Positions 23,908 to 33,729 of a DNA stretch of 39,745 nt are shown here, in pieces. The notes beneath the pieces are model-generated. The model was given only the letters and a program-made list of their open reading frames with translations, was not told where the DNA came from and searched no databases. The DNA comes from a virus, in the UHGV virus genome UHGV-0127686; one strand, given 5' to 3'. Numbering within the stretch: position 1 is the first letter of the stretch; every line of letters begins with the position of its first letter. A program made the translations under genes and the position numbers.

Positions 23908-25128
23908 TTACCCTTTACGGTTTGCCCAGAATTCAGCGTTTTGTTTGTTCAGGGAAGCGATACTGGTCATGCCCATGTTTGGGCGCTGTGCATCGCCGGT
24001 GGTGGCGCGGGTGTTTCGCCCTTTGGCAATCTCAGACACGGCATTAAACGCCATGTCGACCGATTGTTTCGGTAATTTGCGGATATCCGCATCACCGACT
24101 ATCTGGCGAACCAGCGTTTTGTCAGCAGAAGCCAGAACCTCGCGTTTGAACGTGGTCGGTTTCATCTTACGGCTCAGATCGATACCCGGAACGATAACTT
24201 CGGCACGCCAGGCTGAGTCACCAGTAATCGTGGTTTCCTCTTCATCGTCCTCGCCGTCACCGGTCGGATTATCGTCAGGCTTATTGTCGTTATCGCCCGT
24301 CGCATTTCCTTCCAGCTTAGCCAGCAGGGCTTTCAGTAATGTTTTGAGGTCATCATCACTGTCGCCGGTTGGACTTCCGCCCATCTCTGGTGCTTTGTCC
24401 GGTAGCGGTTGCTGCGGGGACAGGTTGATGTTGAGATTAACGCCCTGCGGCAAATCCCCCTCATCTCCTGTAACCGATGCGGGAGCCGACTCCACCAGTT
24501 CGTTCATGGTGTCGGCATCTCCTGTCTTGATGGCCGCACGCATGCGGTTCCACCAGTTTTTCTTTTGATTTGCCATTGTGTCTCTGTCTCCAATTGCACA
24601 ACGATTTCCGGCTCTGCCTTTAGGGACAAGAGCCACATGGTTTCCGGTAATATCGACCTGCTCAGCTTTACCTGGCTCGGTCTGCTCGTACTCCGCGTCA
24701 TAGCCGCACGACACTTCGCGCAGGCCATCTTCGATAAGCTGAATGGCGTTTTCGTCTTTGACGATAAGGTCAGCCAGCATCAAATCAGACTGCTCACCCG
24801 TCCCGCGCCGGACATTCTGGAGGTGCCCGACAGCAAGCTCTTTCCAGTTCTCGGGATTTACCAGCCGCACATTCCCGTTTTCATCTTCAGGATGCAGAAT
24901 CGTGATGCTCATCCCTTCGAATGAGGCAAGCGTGGCCGGATGGAATACCTGCTCAGGAGAACGCGTGACGACTATTTCACCGAACTTATCGGGTTTCAGT
25001 TTTGGCAGGTCATCAGCACCATAGAGCTGCTTACCTGTTCGTCCTATCGGCACGTCTCTGCACAGCAACGAGCCGTCAGCCAGCTGATAGCGGGTTTCCC
25101 CCAGCCGGGTATTGAAAAAATATTTCAT
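23908..25128 (-). CDS. prohead protease / scaffold-like protein (DUF2213-like)
   Basis: 406 aa; N-terminal region resembles the DUF2213 putative prohead protease; central acidic low-complexity stretch (GDSDDD, DDNPTGDGEDDEEE) typical of scaffolds. Confidence 0.55.
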   Translation of the reverse strand: MKYFFNTRLGETRYQLADGSLLCRDVPIGRTGKQLYGADDLPKLKPDKFGEIVVTRSPEQVFHPATLASFEGMSITILHPEDENGNVRLVNPENWKELAVGHLQNVRRGTGEQSDLMLADLIVKDENAIQLIEDGLREVSCGYDAEYEQTEPGKAEQVDITGNHVALVPKGRAGNRCAIGDRDTMANQKKNWWNRMRAAIKTGDADTMNELVESAPASVTGDEGDLPQGVNLNINLSPQQPLPDKAPEMGGSPTGDSDDDLKTLLKALLAKLEGNATGDNDNKPDDNPTGDGEDDEEETTITGDSAWRAEVIVPGIDLSRKMKPTTFKREVLASADKTLVRQIVGDADIRKLPKQSVDMAFNAVSEIAKGRNTRATTGDAQRPNMGMTSIASLNKQNAEFWANRKG

Positions 25129-28858: not shown

Positions 28859-29410
28859 TTAGCCCATCATTTTTCTATACGCCTCTGCAGCCTGCTCCGG
28901 CGTTAAGTTGGTAATTTCTGTTCTGACTGGTCCTCCATCAGCGCCAGTCACTTCATTTTTGACATTGTCTTTAAACGCCTGAACAGAAACATGACGCCCA
29001 AGCAACTCAAGATTTTTAACCTTATCAGGCCATTTGATTTTCTTCAGAAGTGCGGCGCTATCTGCGGATACCATCTCCACGACATCCATTCCTGATAGCG
29101 TTGTGCGCCATACCTTAGGCCAGTCTTTAATGGGTTTTAGCTCACCGTTTTGCAGGAGAATGTCAAGCACATCCATCTGGTCGATTTCAAGAAGGCGATT
29201 AAGTACATATTCTGCATTAATACCAACAAGATCATTGCGTTGCGCTTTCAGTTCAGCGATTCTTAACTTGATGTCAGGTTTTGACATGTTTTCGGACGCA
29301 GTACGGTTGGCTGTCTTTGCGCTGTACCCCGCCCGAATAGCCGCTTGTGTGGCGTTTAAATCGATGAGGTACTCGCGACAGAACATTTCTTGTTTGTCGG
29401 TGAGTGCCAT
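28859..29410 (-). CDS. terminase small subunit (P27 / Terminase_2 family)
   Basis: [34 protein letters not shown] is the characteristic N-terminus of this family. Confidence 0.85.
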
Positions 29411-29434: not shown

Positions 29435-29707
29435 ATGAGTGATTTATTACTAATTAAAAACTGGTTAATTGACCATCATACACTATCAATTTTCTTTGGT
29501 TTTTTATCGGCTGGGTTATGGATCAAATCAGCAACAGCCAAAGTCAAAACAGGTAGAAGCACCGTTGTAGCAATTACATTTGATGATCCCCAAAAAAATG
29601 TAGATCTTCACGAATTTTTCTTAACTGCGCGGTTACAGTCTAAATATAACTCATATGCAGCTTTCGCTGCTGCTGCAACTGTGATTTTGCAAATGGCTGG
29701 CTATTAG
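29435..29707 (+). CDS. small membrane protein (moron, opposite strand)
   Basis: 90 aa from ATG at 29435; two hydrophobic segments; AT-rich; opposite to the flanking operons. Confidence 0.45.
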   Translation: MSDLLLIKNWLIDHHTLSIFFGFLSAGLWIKSATAKVKTGRSTVVAITFDDPQKNVDLHEFFLTARLQSKYNSYAAFAAAATVILQMAGY

Positions 29708-29796
29708 AAAGCCTTAACCACGATATTATTTACCTTTATCAATATCAGTTAACGGCTCAAAGTGTAATGGTTCCACATTCTCCTAATGGAGTTATT

Positions 29797-29922
29797 CTAC
29801 TCGCCCATCTCGGTAGCCGGCTGCATAAAGCCATTAACCAGCTCACGCTGACGTCGTGACATCTTACCCGTAAAGGTTTCGCCTGTTTGGGTGGTTAACA
29901 TGATTTGGTAGATGTCGGACAT
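29797..29922 (-). CDS. 41-aa small ORF with strong RBS
   Basis: aagagg RBS 7 nt upstream of ATG; MSDIYQIMLTTQTGETFTGKMSRRQRELVNGFMQPATEMGE; not in the ORF track because of length. Confidence 0.35.
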   Translation of the reverse strand: MSDIYQIMLTTQTGETFTGKMSRRQRELVNGFMQPATEMGE

Positions 29923-30055
29923 TGAGAACCTCTTTATCCGCTTGTTGGGATATCAGTTAAGTTATCCCGTGTAGGGTATAAGCCATTATCAAAGCCACTC
30001 GGCATGGAGTGGCTTTTGTAATAGCAATAAAAAAACCGTCCGGAGGCGGCTTGTG

Positions 30056-30940
30056 TTAAATCCCCAAGAGAGGCTTAAAGTCATTTAGCTTCTCTGCTTT
30101 AATAACAAATCCGAGATTCATTGTAATTTCAGAACGCACAACTGGTGTAGCGACTGTTGGTACGTCAATAATTTCAATATTCCCGCTAACATTCGTTACT
30201 GGCCCTGCATACAACAACCCAAGGAAAATTAATCTCTCCCCCATAGCAATACCATTATTAGTAGCATATGAGCCTTGGTTCATTATATAAACGGGAGAAC
30301 CGCTAGAACCACCGAAACAAGCCATATCAATGAGGAATTCAGGCTTACCCTTCCAGTTTTCCATAGGTGATGATGCTGTGATGCCTTTCCTGGTAACAGG
30401 CCTATTGTTTACAGAATCCCATAATCCATTTGGATATCCTGTCATGTAAACATCTTCGACAGGAGTAATGTAATTGTTACCACGCATCTGACGATCTGTG
30501 AAAAAGAAGAGTTCTGGGCTAATGCCACTTTTCTCCATCTCATTCAGCAATCCAGCGATAGGCAATATGCATATATCAACATTATCATCAGGGTGCATAA
30601 TGAACGCATTTGCCCCCTCTGAAATTGTTAGGTTATAAAATTTTATCTCAGGATTTGCGCTGTCGGTAATGTTTAGACGTAGTCTAACTTCTGTTGCCCC
30701 GTTAACAACATGCTTATTAGTTACCAAGAGTGGAACAATATCTTCACCACCTTCCATAACAAAGCAAAACCAGAAAGCAGTTCCTACCGAGGTTCCCTCT
30801 GGAGTATCACTTTCAACTCTAAGTGTAGACTTATAAATATCTTGACTGACAGACATATCCGTAACTCCCATGTTTAAATAGGGGATAAATATAGCATCAA
30901 TCACATAAGAATTATCTGATCTGTTCGATGTATTGACCAA
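30056..30940 (-). CDS. trypsin-like (S1/chymotrypsin-fold) serine peptidase, cytoplasmic
   Basis: Catalytic triad motifs in order: LVTNKHVV (His), DICIL (Asp), GGSSGSPV (Ser); no signal peptide; TTG start at 30940 or ATG at 30871; GC-rich hairpin plus T-run downstream. Confidence 0.7.
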   Translation of the reverse strand: MVNTSNRSDNSYVIDAIFIPYLNMGVTDMSVSQDIYKSTLRVESDTPEGTSVGTAFWFCFVMEGGEDIVPLLVTNKHVVNGATEVRLRLNITDSANPEIKFYNLTISEGANAFIMHPDDNVDICILPIAGLLNEMEKSGISPELFFFTDRQMRGNNYITPVEDVYMTGYPNGLWDSVNNRPVTRKGITASSPMENWKGKPEFLIDMACFGGSSGSPVYIMNQGSYATNNGIAMGERLIFLGLLYAGPVTNVSGNIEIIDVPTVATPVVRSEITMNLGFVIKAEKLNDFKPLLGI

Positions 30941-30976
30941 AGATATAAAGCTTCTTCATGGCAGCAAAATAGTCTT

Positions 30977-31234
30977 CTACAGAGAGGTCCGAGACTCTTC
31001 AATCTTCCTGATACTAGCCTTATCGATGTTGCACTGACCCAGCGCCGATAGCAGGCTAACATTCAGCTCCAGACTGGCCCCATAGGTCAGCGGTTCGGGA
31101 ATGGCTGGCTGTTGCGTCTCAGCTGTCAGGTTTGCCGGTAGAGGCACTACCGATACCGGTACGTAAACTGTCCGCGAATTGCCGCAGCCGGTGAGCAGTT
31201 GCAGGAGGCACAGGCCGATGAGCGCAGTCATCAT
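30977..31234 (-). CDS. o-spanin (Rz1-like outer-membrane lipoprotein)
   Basis: [17 protein letters not shown] signal with lipobox; partly embedded in the +1 frame of the i-spanin gene. Confidence 0.7.
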   Translation of the reverse strand: MMTALIGLCLLQLLTGCGNSRTVYVPVSVVPLPANLTAETQQPAIPEPLTYGASLELNVSLLSALGQCNIDKASIRKIEESRTSL

Positions 31235-31511
31235 TCTCAATAGCCACTTTGATATCTGCTTGGGCTCCCTGTGACTCCAGTGTGATCTGGTTCTTTGCAT
31301 CCTGGTTGGCCTCTGCAATGGCGTTGATGATGTTCACAGACCGAATGACGTTGGCGGTGATCGCTTCGGCGGCGTTGGCGTTCTGCTCGGCAGCATCTGC
31401 GCGTAGCCGTTCCGCCTGATACTTATCGTGATAATGGCTTGCTGACCAAACGATGACGCCCAGTACGCTCAATGCGAACGCGAAGATAATTATCTTGTAG
31501 TGGATCTTCAT
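31119..31511 (-). CDS. i-spanin (Rz-like)
   Basis: N-terminal transmembrane helix then coiled-coil; ATGA overlap with the endolysin stop. Confidence 0.75.
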
Positions 31512-32005
31512 TGCTCCCCCCATAAACAGACTTCACGCTCAATCTCACGACGAGTCATGAGACCTTTCCATTGCTTACCGCCAGCGTATGTCCAGCGCCG
31601 TAGCTGATCACATGCGCCTTTGATATCGCCCTGGTTTATTTTGCGAAGAAGCGTCGATGTTCTGAAATTTCCAGCACCAACGTTGTAAACGAACGAGTAA
31701 AGAGCGCCGCGCGTTGTTTCCGGTATATCGACTTTGATGTACGGGTTAATTTGTCTGGCTACCGTGGCAAGGTCTTTATTCAGGAGGGCTTTGCATTCTG
31801 CTTCGGTATACGTTTTACCGAGCATAATGTCTTTTCCGGTATGCCCGTAACATACAGTCCATACACCAACGATATCTTTATATGGTATGTAGCTGACGCC
31901 TTCCAGACCATCGTTACCACTTGGGCCAGTGATTAACACAGATGCTATAGCAATAGCCCCGCCACCAATAGCCGCAGCAACGGCTTTTCGTAATGATGGA
32001 GGCAT
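31508..32005 (-). CDS. SAR endolysin (phage 21 R-type lysozyme)
   Basis: Gly/Ala-rich N-terminal signal-anchor-release helix followed by lysozyme catalytic region ([23 protein letters not shown]). Confidence 0.85.
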
Positions 32006-32338: not shown

Positions 32339-32414
32339 TGGTGCTGGTTAACGGACTTGAACCGCTACCCATTCGCTTACAAGGCGACCGCTCTACCATT
32401 GGAGCTAAACCAGC
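32339..32414 (-). tRNA. tRNA-Thr (anticodon UGU)
   Basis: 76-nt cloverleaf folded by hand: 7-bp acceptor, D-loop with GG, anticodon loop cUUGUaa, T-loop TTCAAGT, 3' CCA; one non-WC pair at 27-43. Confidence 0.65.
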
Positions 32415-32419
32415 ATATT

Positions 32420-32495
32420 TGGCGGGACAGCGTGGACTCGAACCACGATAAGAAGGTTAACAGCCTTCCGTAATGACCTTTATACGACTGACCCA
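32420..32495 (-). tRNA. tRNA-like sequence, Asn-type anticodon GUU (possibly degenerate)
   Basis: Perfect anticodon arm (gaagg/cUGUUaa/ccttc), T-arm GGTTCGAGTCC and CCA end, but acceptor stem has a T-T mismatch and the D-arm is irregular. Confidence 0.4.
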
Positions 32496-32585: not shown

Positions 32586-33074
32586 CTATGCTATATGTTT
32601 AATTTTCTCTACACGTTTCCGGTTTTTAAACGCACTATCCAGAACCGGGTAAATCATAAACAACGAGGCATTGATGATTTCGTCAACTTCCCGTCGACAG
32701 GTTGCGAGCGATGGTTTTTGAATGCGCCCGCCGCCCCGGCATAACATCTTGCGAGGTCTTGCGACGCGATGATAGTAAGATGCAATGGCGTGCTTGGAAG
32801 AGCCGTGGGCGTAGTAGCTGAGGAGGATGCCAAAGGCTTTCTTGTCAATGTACATGACGGAATCGACGACCTGAGAAATCAACATTCCATCATCATCATT
32901 ACACATTGGCCTTGTCATAACTCTTCCCGGCTCTACGCTCTCCATGAACTTAGCTATTACGCTGCTCATGCGCTTTTCCAGACGACCTGAATAAACCCAT
33001 GCGCCCCACAGTTCAAGCCAGCCATTCAGCCACTCGTGCTGTTCTTTGGTGAGGTTTAGTTCTCTTATGCCCAT
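32586..33074 (-). CDS. late antiterminator Q (phage 82/933W-type Q family)
   Basis: From ATG at 33074 with ggagaagg RBS; LELWGAW, CNDDDGMLIS, LLSYYAHG pattern resembles Q82-type antiterminators; position between nin genes and lysis cassette. Confidence 0.6.
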   Translation of the reverse strand: MGIRELNLTKEQHEWLNGWLELWGAWVYSGRLEKRMSSVIAKFMESVEPGRVMTRPMCNDDDGMLISQVVDSVMYIDKKAFGILLSYYAHGSSKHAIASYYHRVARPRKMLCRGGGRIQKPSLATCRREVDEIINASLFMIYPVLDSAFKNRKRVEKIKHIA

Positions 33075-33117
33075 GCGCCTTCTCCCTTGTGATCTGGAAT
33101 GGTTTTTACTGAGAACG

Positions 33118-33729
33118 TCATGCGGCCTCACTTCTGCTGTTTCGCAGGTCTTTGAGTTTCTGCTGATACTCCGCCTTGATGGCCCTGCACTCTTCGACAG
33201 TCCAGCGATGGCGGTTATGGTTTGATTCGATTTCGTCTACTGCTTCCTGCCCGATGCGGCTAATCAGTTCGACGCGATACGGAACGAGATTTCCGCTTTT
33301 GTGCTGGTTGCACACCACGCATTGCTTGTGAATATTGCGTTCATCAAATCGGAGTTGAGGTGCCGCAGCAGTTGTCCGGTAATGTCCGGCATCCCACTGA
33401 GCAGACGTGATCGTTCCGCATGAGATACATGGTAAGTCGCGGTCTCTTTCTCTGATGAAGGCGTTTACGGCTTGTTGGGCTTGTTTAATCCAGTAACTGC
33501 GGGGCTTTAAGGCGAGTTTTCTAATCTTAAGTTTATCTTTCTGTTTCTGCTCCTCTCGTCGTCGTTTCTTCTCTGCTGCTTTTTCCGCTTTTTCGCGTTC
33601 TTTACTTCGTCGTTCGAGTGCTATCTTGGTTCCACACTCTGGAGAGCACCACCACTGATTAGCGAATGCAGGGTGAAACCATTCCCGACATTCATCGTTT
33701 TTACATCGTCTTCGCGCTGGTTTAGCCAT
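33118..33729 (-). CDS. ninG: NinG (Rap) recombination protein
   Basis: Near-identical to lambda NinG as recalled ([33 protein letters not shown]...). Confidence 0.9.

Follow-up and report, generated by a model that had tools for sequence, protein, structure and literature searches.

What is a gene for a trypsin-like serine protease doing between the lysis genes and the packaging genes of a phage? The question is raised by UHGV virus genome UHGV-0127686, a stretch of 39,745 nucleotides that is referred to here as the window. In it, a minus-strand open reading frame (ORF) that spans 30056..30940 at its maximum, opens with a TTG codon, and encodes 294 amino acids lies between the last spanin gene and the gene for the small terminase subunit. 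Our analysis suggests that this gene constitutes a prophage-borne, single-gene anti-phage defense, a candidate role that we regard as modestly probable. We favor this role because the protein matches the defense-candidate family PDC-S45, because some relatives are embedded in restriction-modification (R-M) and BREX surroundings, because the family is sporadically spread, and because no partner gene accompanies it. An earlier note, made from the letters of this DNA, had suggested an abortive-infection or anti-phage effector, which is also what the databases suggest and what sequence comparison makes plausible.

A predicted chymotrypsin-fold protease of the cytoplasm

Judged from its sequence, the product is a serine protease of clan PA, family S1, with the chymotrypsin fold, and proteolytic activity is predicted. 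Pfam Trypsin_2 (PF13365) matched residues 60-218 of the 294-amino-acid ORF with 41.8 bits (E 2.3e-10), above the gathering score of 27.6. The catalytic motifs read TNKH(49)V, D(94)ICIL, and GSS(185)GSP in the numbering of the 266-residue product that is argued for below; the same residues are H77, D122, and S213 in the 294-residue numbering. An alignment of 77 sequences, with identities as low as 41%, has 31 invariant positions, among them TN-H49-V, D94, and G-S-S185-G-S-P. When the family profile was compared with solved structures, the staphylococcal glutamyl endopeptidases (Esp/V8) were the closest by sequence (E 4e-5); the alignment covers all three catalytic motifs, and the catalytic residues match H49, D94, and S185. 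The His/Asp/Ser triad in S1 order that the earlier note had pointed out is thus confirmed, being invariant in the 77 sequences and aligned to V8/Esp.

The two-β-barrel chymotrypsin fold was found in the predicted structure, with only about 180 of the 266 residues superposable. Specific to the family are three additions: a helix (101-109), a long loop (115-134), and a β-hairpin (220-245). The tip of this hairpin is predicted with low confidence, yet it holds the conserved residues G225, P233, and T234.

The staphylococcal glutamyl endopeptidases V8/SspA and Esp (MEROPS S1B) and the HtrA/Deg proteases (S1C) are secreted or periplasmic enzymes, V8/Esp carrying pro-peptides and HtrA carrying PDZ domains. 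In contrast to both groups, the window protease is predicted to be cytoplasmic, has neither a pro-peptide nor a PDZ domain, shares 15-20% identity with them, and has about 80 extra residues. Membership in HtrA/DegP (S1C) was rejected, as there was no PDZ match and no signal peptide, and the NCBIfam degP model scored 10.5 bits against a cutoff of 416.

No signal peptide or transmembrane segment was found in the protein; Kyte-Doolittle means over 19 residues peak at 1.34, and four acidic residues against two basic ones among the first 20 make for an acidic N-terminus. The absence of a signal peptide noted earlier therefore stands, and the protease is predicted to be soluble, cytoplasmic, and single-domain. 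Against close homologs, the ratio of nonsynonymous to synonymous substitution rates (dN/dS) is 0.09-0.28, which indicates purifying selection on the protease gene.

Start codon and upstream leader

The earlier note had taken the whole ORF, with its bound at 30940, as the gene. We correct this start: the ATG at 30856 is most likely the true one, and the product would then have 266 amino acids. Four lines of evidence favor it. Half of the best homologs (60 of 120) are 260-269 amino acids long, and NCBI annotates the near-identical Salmonella and E. coli proteins mostly with 266 amino acids. Furthermore, a Shine-Dalgarno sequence, GGGAG, stands 8 nt 5′ of this ATG at 30869-30865, and an E. coli homolog of 68% identity resembles the window at the nucleotide level over exactly 30856-30056. 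In an upstream alignment of 14 loci, AGGA or GAGG precedes the same Met-Ser (or Met-Pro) start in 13; the upstream stretch of the remaining locus, L115, is unaligned. The part of the maximal ORF that lies 5′ of 30856 is probably not translated.

Phage cargo at recurrent sites

The protease gene is phage cargo, not a core gene. The prophage of E. coli HZ13 is 95% identical to the window at the nucleotide level over 30023-27000, a stretch that holds the junction element described below, a 41-amino-acid ORF, an antisense 90-amino-acid ORF, terS, and terL; in place of the protease, it carries a Rha-family regulator. Salmonella P22-like prophages match the window at 92-94% identity from Q or the lysis genes onward, across the protease and as far as 29933; beyond this point, their packaging and head genes form a wholly different module (Sf6-type terS, P22 portal and coat).

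More distant copies vary in their company as well. In Klebsiella and E. coli prophages, homologs of 59-68% identity fill the same slot in the same orientation, directly 3′ of the spanin genes and ahead of the terminase; the Klebsiella prophages with a homolog carry three different terminase types, and the E. coli prophage has a GH19 endolysin. Taken with the Salmonella P22-like ones, these prophages have unrelated lysis, terminase, and portal modules. In Morganella prophages, the gene follows the nin region and immediately precedes terS, and the lysis genes do not come before it; the homolog of one such prophage is 43% identical. Across 56 non-redundant IMG/VR loci, a co-oriented TerL-like ORF was found less than 4 kb downstream in 13, and the homologs of these 13 are 33-100% identical to the window protease. 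P2-like prophages (IMG/VR loci L144 and L153) have homologs of 37-40% identity between gpS (tail completion) and gpV (baseplate spike). These homologs are antisense to all flanking late genes, and therefore a promoter of their own is implied for the P2-like copies. Some other viral copies adjoin integrases.

The earlier note had called the gene a moron of low guanine-cytosine (GC) content with its own terminator-like hairpin, placed it at the junction of lysis and terminase genes, and held it to be distinct from a prohead protease encoded elsewhere in the window. These claims fared well. Presence or absence relative to HZ13, deviant base composition, and a terminator of its own were all found: GC is 0.39-0.42 across the protease gene against 0.50-0.55 in Rz and terL, and a hairpin with a run of seven U follows the stop codon. 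Rz/Rz1 and terS flank the gene, and the supposed prohead protease is a separate DUF2213 gene (Table 1).

The lambdoid moron is reportedly defined by Juhala/Hendrix. Lambda bor, a conversion gene downstream of Rz/Rz1, encodes an outer-membrane lipoprotein and is transcribed from its own promoter against the late operon. The window protease gene resembles bor in its site, in its presence or absence between similar phages, in its deviant base composition, and in having its own terminator. It differs from bor in being co-oriented with the late operon, in encoding a predicted cytoplasmic enzyme, and in that a promoter of its own is only putative.

Further arrangements were seen among the viral copies. 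In two IMG/VR loci, L122 and L123, the homolog is not upstream of terS but has a TerL-like ORF on one side and the next head gene on the other. In locus L116 (5424-7374 of IMGVR_UViG_2558860438_000004), a copy with about 93-96% nucleotide identity is interrupted at the equivalent of window position 30433/30444. The insert measures about 1.95 kb and holds ORFs of 340 and 259 amino acids, and the scan of neighboring genes gave an IstB_IS21 match there; the interruption is probably an IS21-family insertion that inactivates the protease gene. In some Klebsiella prophages, a 212-amino-acid 'PhageMetallopep' protein (PF18894) is encoded directly 3′ of the serine protease homolog (L006 6889-7527 and L007 6890-7528). 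Two unrelated proteases are thus adjacent at the lysis/terminase junction of these prophages, an arrangement not seen in the window.

A member of the defense-candidate family PDC-S45

In PADLOC, the protein matched PDC-S45 with E 8.5e-101, residues 24-292 of the 294-amino-acid ORF aligning to positions 11-283 of the 293-position profile; PHROG 7688, labelled 'unknown function', matched with E 3.3e-100. The PDC models stem from a study that proposed defense candidates through 'guilt-by-embedding', on the ground that the genes lie inside BREX, DISARM, or type I R-M systems (Payne et al. 2024, bioRxiv 10.1101/2024.01.29.577857). The window gene is a member of PDC-S45, a family defined solely by genomic association, whose members are single ORFs of about 265-285 amino acids with no conserved partner and lie in some cases inside type I R-M or BREX loci. 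It is therefore a further example of a catalogued candidate family and not a novel kind of system. The string 'PDC-S45' was not found in the supplement text of Payne et al. 2024, and in the texts searched we found no description of the phage locations of the gene (lambdoid lysis/terS, P2 gpS-gpV, and integrase-proximal).

The family is large. An exhaustive profile search gave 1,966 clusters (at 50% identity) at E<=1e-30 and 4,224 at E<=1e-10, and nearly all of the best 150 clusters have 265-300 amino acids. With one genome counted per species, homologs occur in 510 of 185,579 species genomes, typically with about 40% identity over the full length. They were found in Proteobacteria, Firmicutes, Bacteroidota, Actinomycetota, Planctomycetota, Cyanobacteria, the candidate phyla radiation (CPR), and archaea. 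This sporadic occurrence over nearly all phyla at about 40% full-length identity indicates horizontal spread. NCBI names the window protease 'S1 family peptidase', and its 90%-identity cluster has members on more than 1,600 contigs, which come from Salmonella enterica, E. coli, and E. marmotae. In 5,426 RefSeq complete E. coli genomes searched at megablast sensitivity, the protease gene was absent, and only its flanks matched.

The genes immediately on either side of the homolog were surveyed at 64 non-redundant chromosomal loci, yielding 103 neighboring proteins. No Pfam or PADLOC family occurred more than three times among these 103 neighbors, so that no conserved partner emerged, and this lack of a recurrent neighbor fits a single-gene system. 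In the few longer family members (329-445 amino acids), no second Pfam domain was found.

A search of other genomes for defense contexts, as the earlier note had proposed, found homologs embedded in a type I R-M operon and at BREX PglX, an independent reproduction of the pattern behind the PDC prediction that extends to an archaeon. In an archaeal metagenome-assembled genome (MAG) of the Micrarchaeia (L070 6001-6792), the genes run HsdM, HsdS, protease, HsdR, and the protease is separated from its two neighbors by 1 and 0 nt. In a Balneola MAG (L043 6001-6813), the protease ORF and the 3′ end of BREX PglX share 4 bases (printed gap -3), and in Salinibius (L074) a single ORF stands between HsdR and the protease that comes after it. 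A Flavobacterium homolog lies at the end of a contig, and its neighborhood was uninformative.

Weighing the defense role against alternatives

Several observations weigh against an anti-phage role. All 145 PDCs, PDC-S45 included, were called untested by their authors (Payne et al. 2024, 10.1101/2024.01.29.577857), and a full-text literature search for 'PDC-S45' returned only one other paper, which describes a PADLOC hit in Sinorhizobium prophages. Recognizable defense genes abut only a minority of the 64 chromosomal loci, and many chromosomal homologs stand beside housekeeping genes such as gyrA, ligA, and asparagine synthase. A tblastn search of the protease against 50,697 cultured phage genomes gave no match. 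In the window, the gene points the same way as the Q-dependent late operon. The sole promoter-like match upstream of it is a weak sigma-70-like TGGTCA-17-GATAAT (9/12) at 30939-30911; promoter-like matches are no more numerous there than in shuffled sequence. In the upstream alignment, this match is kept only in close relatives, and a promoter of the gene's own at 30939-30911 is a candidate, not an established one. Besides, a protease with neither a sensor domain nor a partner has no apparent means of being silenced and triggered.

Among the alternatives, a function in the lytic cycle of the phage itself survives best, and we nevertheless consider it unlikely. The protease would be expressed late under Q antitermination and would cleave host defense proteins or proteins that limit yield or lysis, in the manner of a counter-defense or host-takeover factor. 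Such a role would agree with the position of the gene, co-oriented inside the late operon (Rz1-terS) in every Enterobacterales prophage examined, with our not finding a convincing promoter for it, and with the two viral loci whose homolog stands next to a TerL-like ORF, ahead of the following head gene. The terminator would be no obstacle to it: Q-modified polymerase reads through such terminators during the lytic growth of lambdoid phages and would do so here. However, the P2-like copies, being antisense to the late genes, are outside the late transcript there. Chromosomal homologs occur without phage genes, including those in the archaeal type I R-M operon and after BREX PglX, and closely related phages do without the gene. 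Moreover, the cultured genomes that hold no homolog include virulent phages rich in counter-defense.

Lysogenic conversion or a role in host physiology unrelated to phage, in which the protease would remodel the proteome of the host (stress response, turnover of regulators) to the advantage of the lysogen, or an addiction toxin that stabilizes the prophage, appears quite unlikely to us. The moron architecture, the lambdoid site used by conversion genes such as lambda bor, and the many chromosomal homologs that adjoin housekeeping genes would all suit it. On the other hand, the protein has no signal peptide and is therefore not a secreted virulence factor. The homologs come from soil, marine, gut, CPR, and archaeal genomes, so that no niche-specific benefit is evident, and no conserved, antitoxin-like partner was found among the neighbors surveyed. 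The embedding in R-M and BREX loci points instead to immunity.

A virion morphogenesis protease for prohead maturation, or a component of lysis, is effectively refuted and most improbable: its sole support is the neighborhood, beside the spanin genes and upstream of the head module, whereas the DUF2213 'head maturation protease' gene is dedicated to the former task, HZ13 has the same packaging module without a trypsin-like gene, unrelated head and lysis modules accompany the gene elsewhere, the Morganella copies have no preceding lysis genes, and the protease is predicted to be cytoplasmic while spanin and endolysin substrates are in the envelope. The capsid-maturation alternative that the earlier note had raised was thus considered, and the gene is not kept with the head module, as HZ13, with its terS and terL, demonstrates. 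In the window, too, the gene lies outside that module (portal, protease/scaffold, capsid), and it does not co-vary with it.

Relation to known immune proteases and a possible mechanism

Trypsin-like proteases with an established role in immunity are fused to sensors (helicase, STAND ATPase, reverse transcriptase), namely HamA/B, Avs2, LmuA, and DRT reverse transcriptases, and activate an adjacent metallo-β-lactamase (MBL) pro-nuclease (Tuck et al. 2025, PMC12799240; Huang et al. 2025, bioRxiv 10.1101/2025.09.03.673762). The likeness of the window gene to these trypsin-MBL modules of Hachiman, Avs2, Lamassu, and DRT systems lies in a cytoplasmic protease of the Trypsin_2 type, which has an immune role there. 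PADLOC gave weak matches to the protease portions of RT-Protease_XI (E 2.4e-6) and LmuA (E 1e-3). Membership in such a module was rejected, since the window protease is unfused, a single domain of 266 amino acids, and its neighbors are Rz1 and the 41-amino-acid ORF, with no MBL. For the chromosomal loci, no MBL family was among the 25 most frequent neighbor families listed. A literature search for a tested trypsin-like single-gene prophage defense found none; it returned only the fused trypsin-MBL systems and unrelated prophage defenses (the GiPD474 ATPase and the small RNA svsR).

Lit, a peptidase of family U49 encoded by the e14 prophage, cleaves EF-Tu once the Gol peptide of the T4 capsid appears, and abortive infection follows. 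The likeness to the window gene is conceptual, in that both are single prophage-encoded proteases predicted or known to be cytoplasmic; Lit is an unrelated zinc metalloprotease with no relationship in sequence or fold. By this analogy, Lit would be the best precedent for a sensor-less protease acting in defense.

If the gene does serve anti-phage defense, the lysogen would express a protease that is latent and harmless while the cell is uninfected. Upon infection by a competing phage, the protease would cleave a phage protein or an essential host protein, and phage production would be blocked. A trigger of the Lit kind can be envisaged: a phage protein would be either the substrate or an activator that turns the protease against a host protein essential to the cell. 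The family-specific hairpin 220-245 may serve as a gate or docking element. The terminator directly 3′ of the gene would keep lysogenic transcription out of terS. Expression in the lysogen, proteolytic activity, protection against phage, and the substrate are what we infer for this protease. We are more hesitant about a stronger proposal, which we put forward as tentative and rather doubtful. It holds that this sensor-less, partner-less domain of 266 amino acids would be a complete immune system, that it would directly recognize a conserved phage protein, which would be its allosteric activator or its substrate, in a Lit/Gol-like manner but on a chymotrypsin fold and with the hairpin 220-245 as its gate, and that it would have spread between bacteria and archaea partly via phage accessory sites.

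Should the defense role be true, the protease would be among the smallest protease-based immune systems known, with one catalytic domain and no recognizable sensor, and it would raise the question of what holds such an enzyme in check and which proteins it cleaves. Considering the Salmonella and E. coli contigs that carry the gene, a positive result would matter for phage therapy and for how susceptible clinically relevant strains are to phages. Furthermore, the recurrent sites, lambdoid Rz1/terS and P2 gpS/gpV, mark places in which to seek other prophage-borne defense genes.

The locus and its junction element

The features of the locus are collected in Table 1. On the minus strand, the order of genes is Q (32586-33131), two transfer RNA (tRNA) genes, holin, lysozyme, Rz, Rz1, and then the protease; downstream follow the 41-amino-acid ORF, terS, terL, portal, a Mu-F-like protein, the DUF2213 gene, a cement protein, and the major capsid protein.

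Table 1. Coordinates of the protease gene and of the features around it in the window
Feature	Coordinates	Strand	Remarks
Protease coding sequence	30056..30856	-	266 amino acids plus stop; PDC-S45 / PHROG 7688 / Pfam Trypsin_2
His49 codon	30712-30710	-	
Asp94 codon	30577-30575	-	
Ser185 codon	30304-30302	-	
Upstream intergenic leader	30857..30976	-	5′ part of the maximal ORF; GGGAG ribosome-binding site and weak sigma-70-like match
Rz1/LysC-like o-spanin lipoprotein	30977..31234	-	Lipobox LLTGC; lies within Rz; final lysis gene ahead of the protease
Rz-like i-spanin (DUF2570)	31119..31523	-	Upstream neighbor
Intrinsic-terminator-like hairpin and U7	30026..30052	-	Hairpin 30052-30033, directly 3′ of the stop codon
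Non-coding junction element	29933..30034	-	10-bp-stem hairpin; just 3′ of the protease terminator
Terminase small subunit terS (Terminase_2)	28859..29410	-	First packaging-module gene downstream
DUF2213 gene	23908-25128	-	Several 'head maturation protease' PHROG matches; Pfam itself gives no protease annotation

The non-coding element of about 90 bp that follows the protease terminator also occurs, with 93-95% identity and mostly without annotation, in at least 90 cultured phages of the lambdoid and P22-like kinds, among them Sf6, HK544, mEp460, and IME10; a megablast of 29700-31300 against cultured phages matched only this element. The region 29930-30062 has a folding z of -6.6, and the stem of 10 bp in the element is perfect. 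The homology block of lysis genes and protease stops at 29933 and the packaging block starts at 30023, so that the two overlap only in the junction element. From these comparisons, the element looks like a recombination or module-junction sequence. An Rfam search of it matched no family. A match to the Pseudomonas P9 RNA (18 bits, E 0.5) was rejected as chance, and svsR was rejected as the RNA of this element, as svsR lies at the 3′ end of cI.

Two small ORFs lie between the junction element and terS. The 41-amino-acid ORF (29797-29922, minus strand) matches PHROG 6581, of unknown function, and is kept with the packaging module in E. coli HZ13. The 90-amino-acid ORF (29435-29707, plus strand) lies between terS and the 41-amino-acid ORF, antisense to the late operon, and has a GC content of about 0.37. 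Its whole length matches PHROG 14357, of unknown function, and the E. coli HZ13 annotation lists it as hypothetical; possibly it is another moron, facing the other way.

On the other side of the lysis genes, the two tRNA genes, Thr-TGT and Asn-GTT, occupy 32339-32494 on the minus strand between Q and holin. This stretch is 96.6% identical to Salmonella prophages with differing Q genes.

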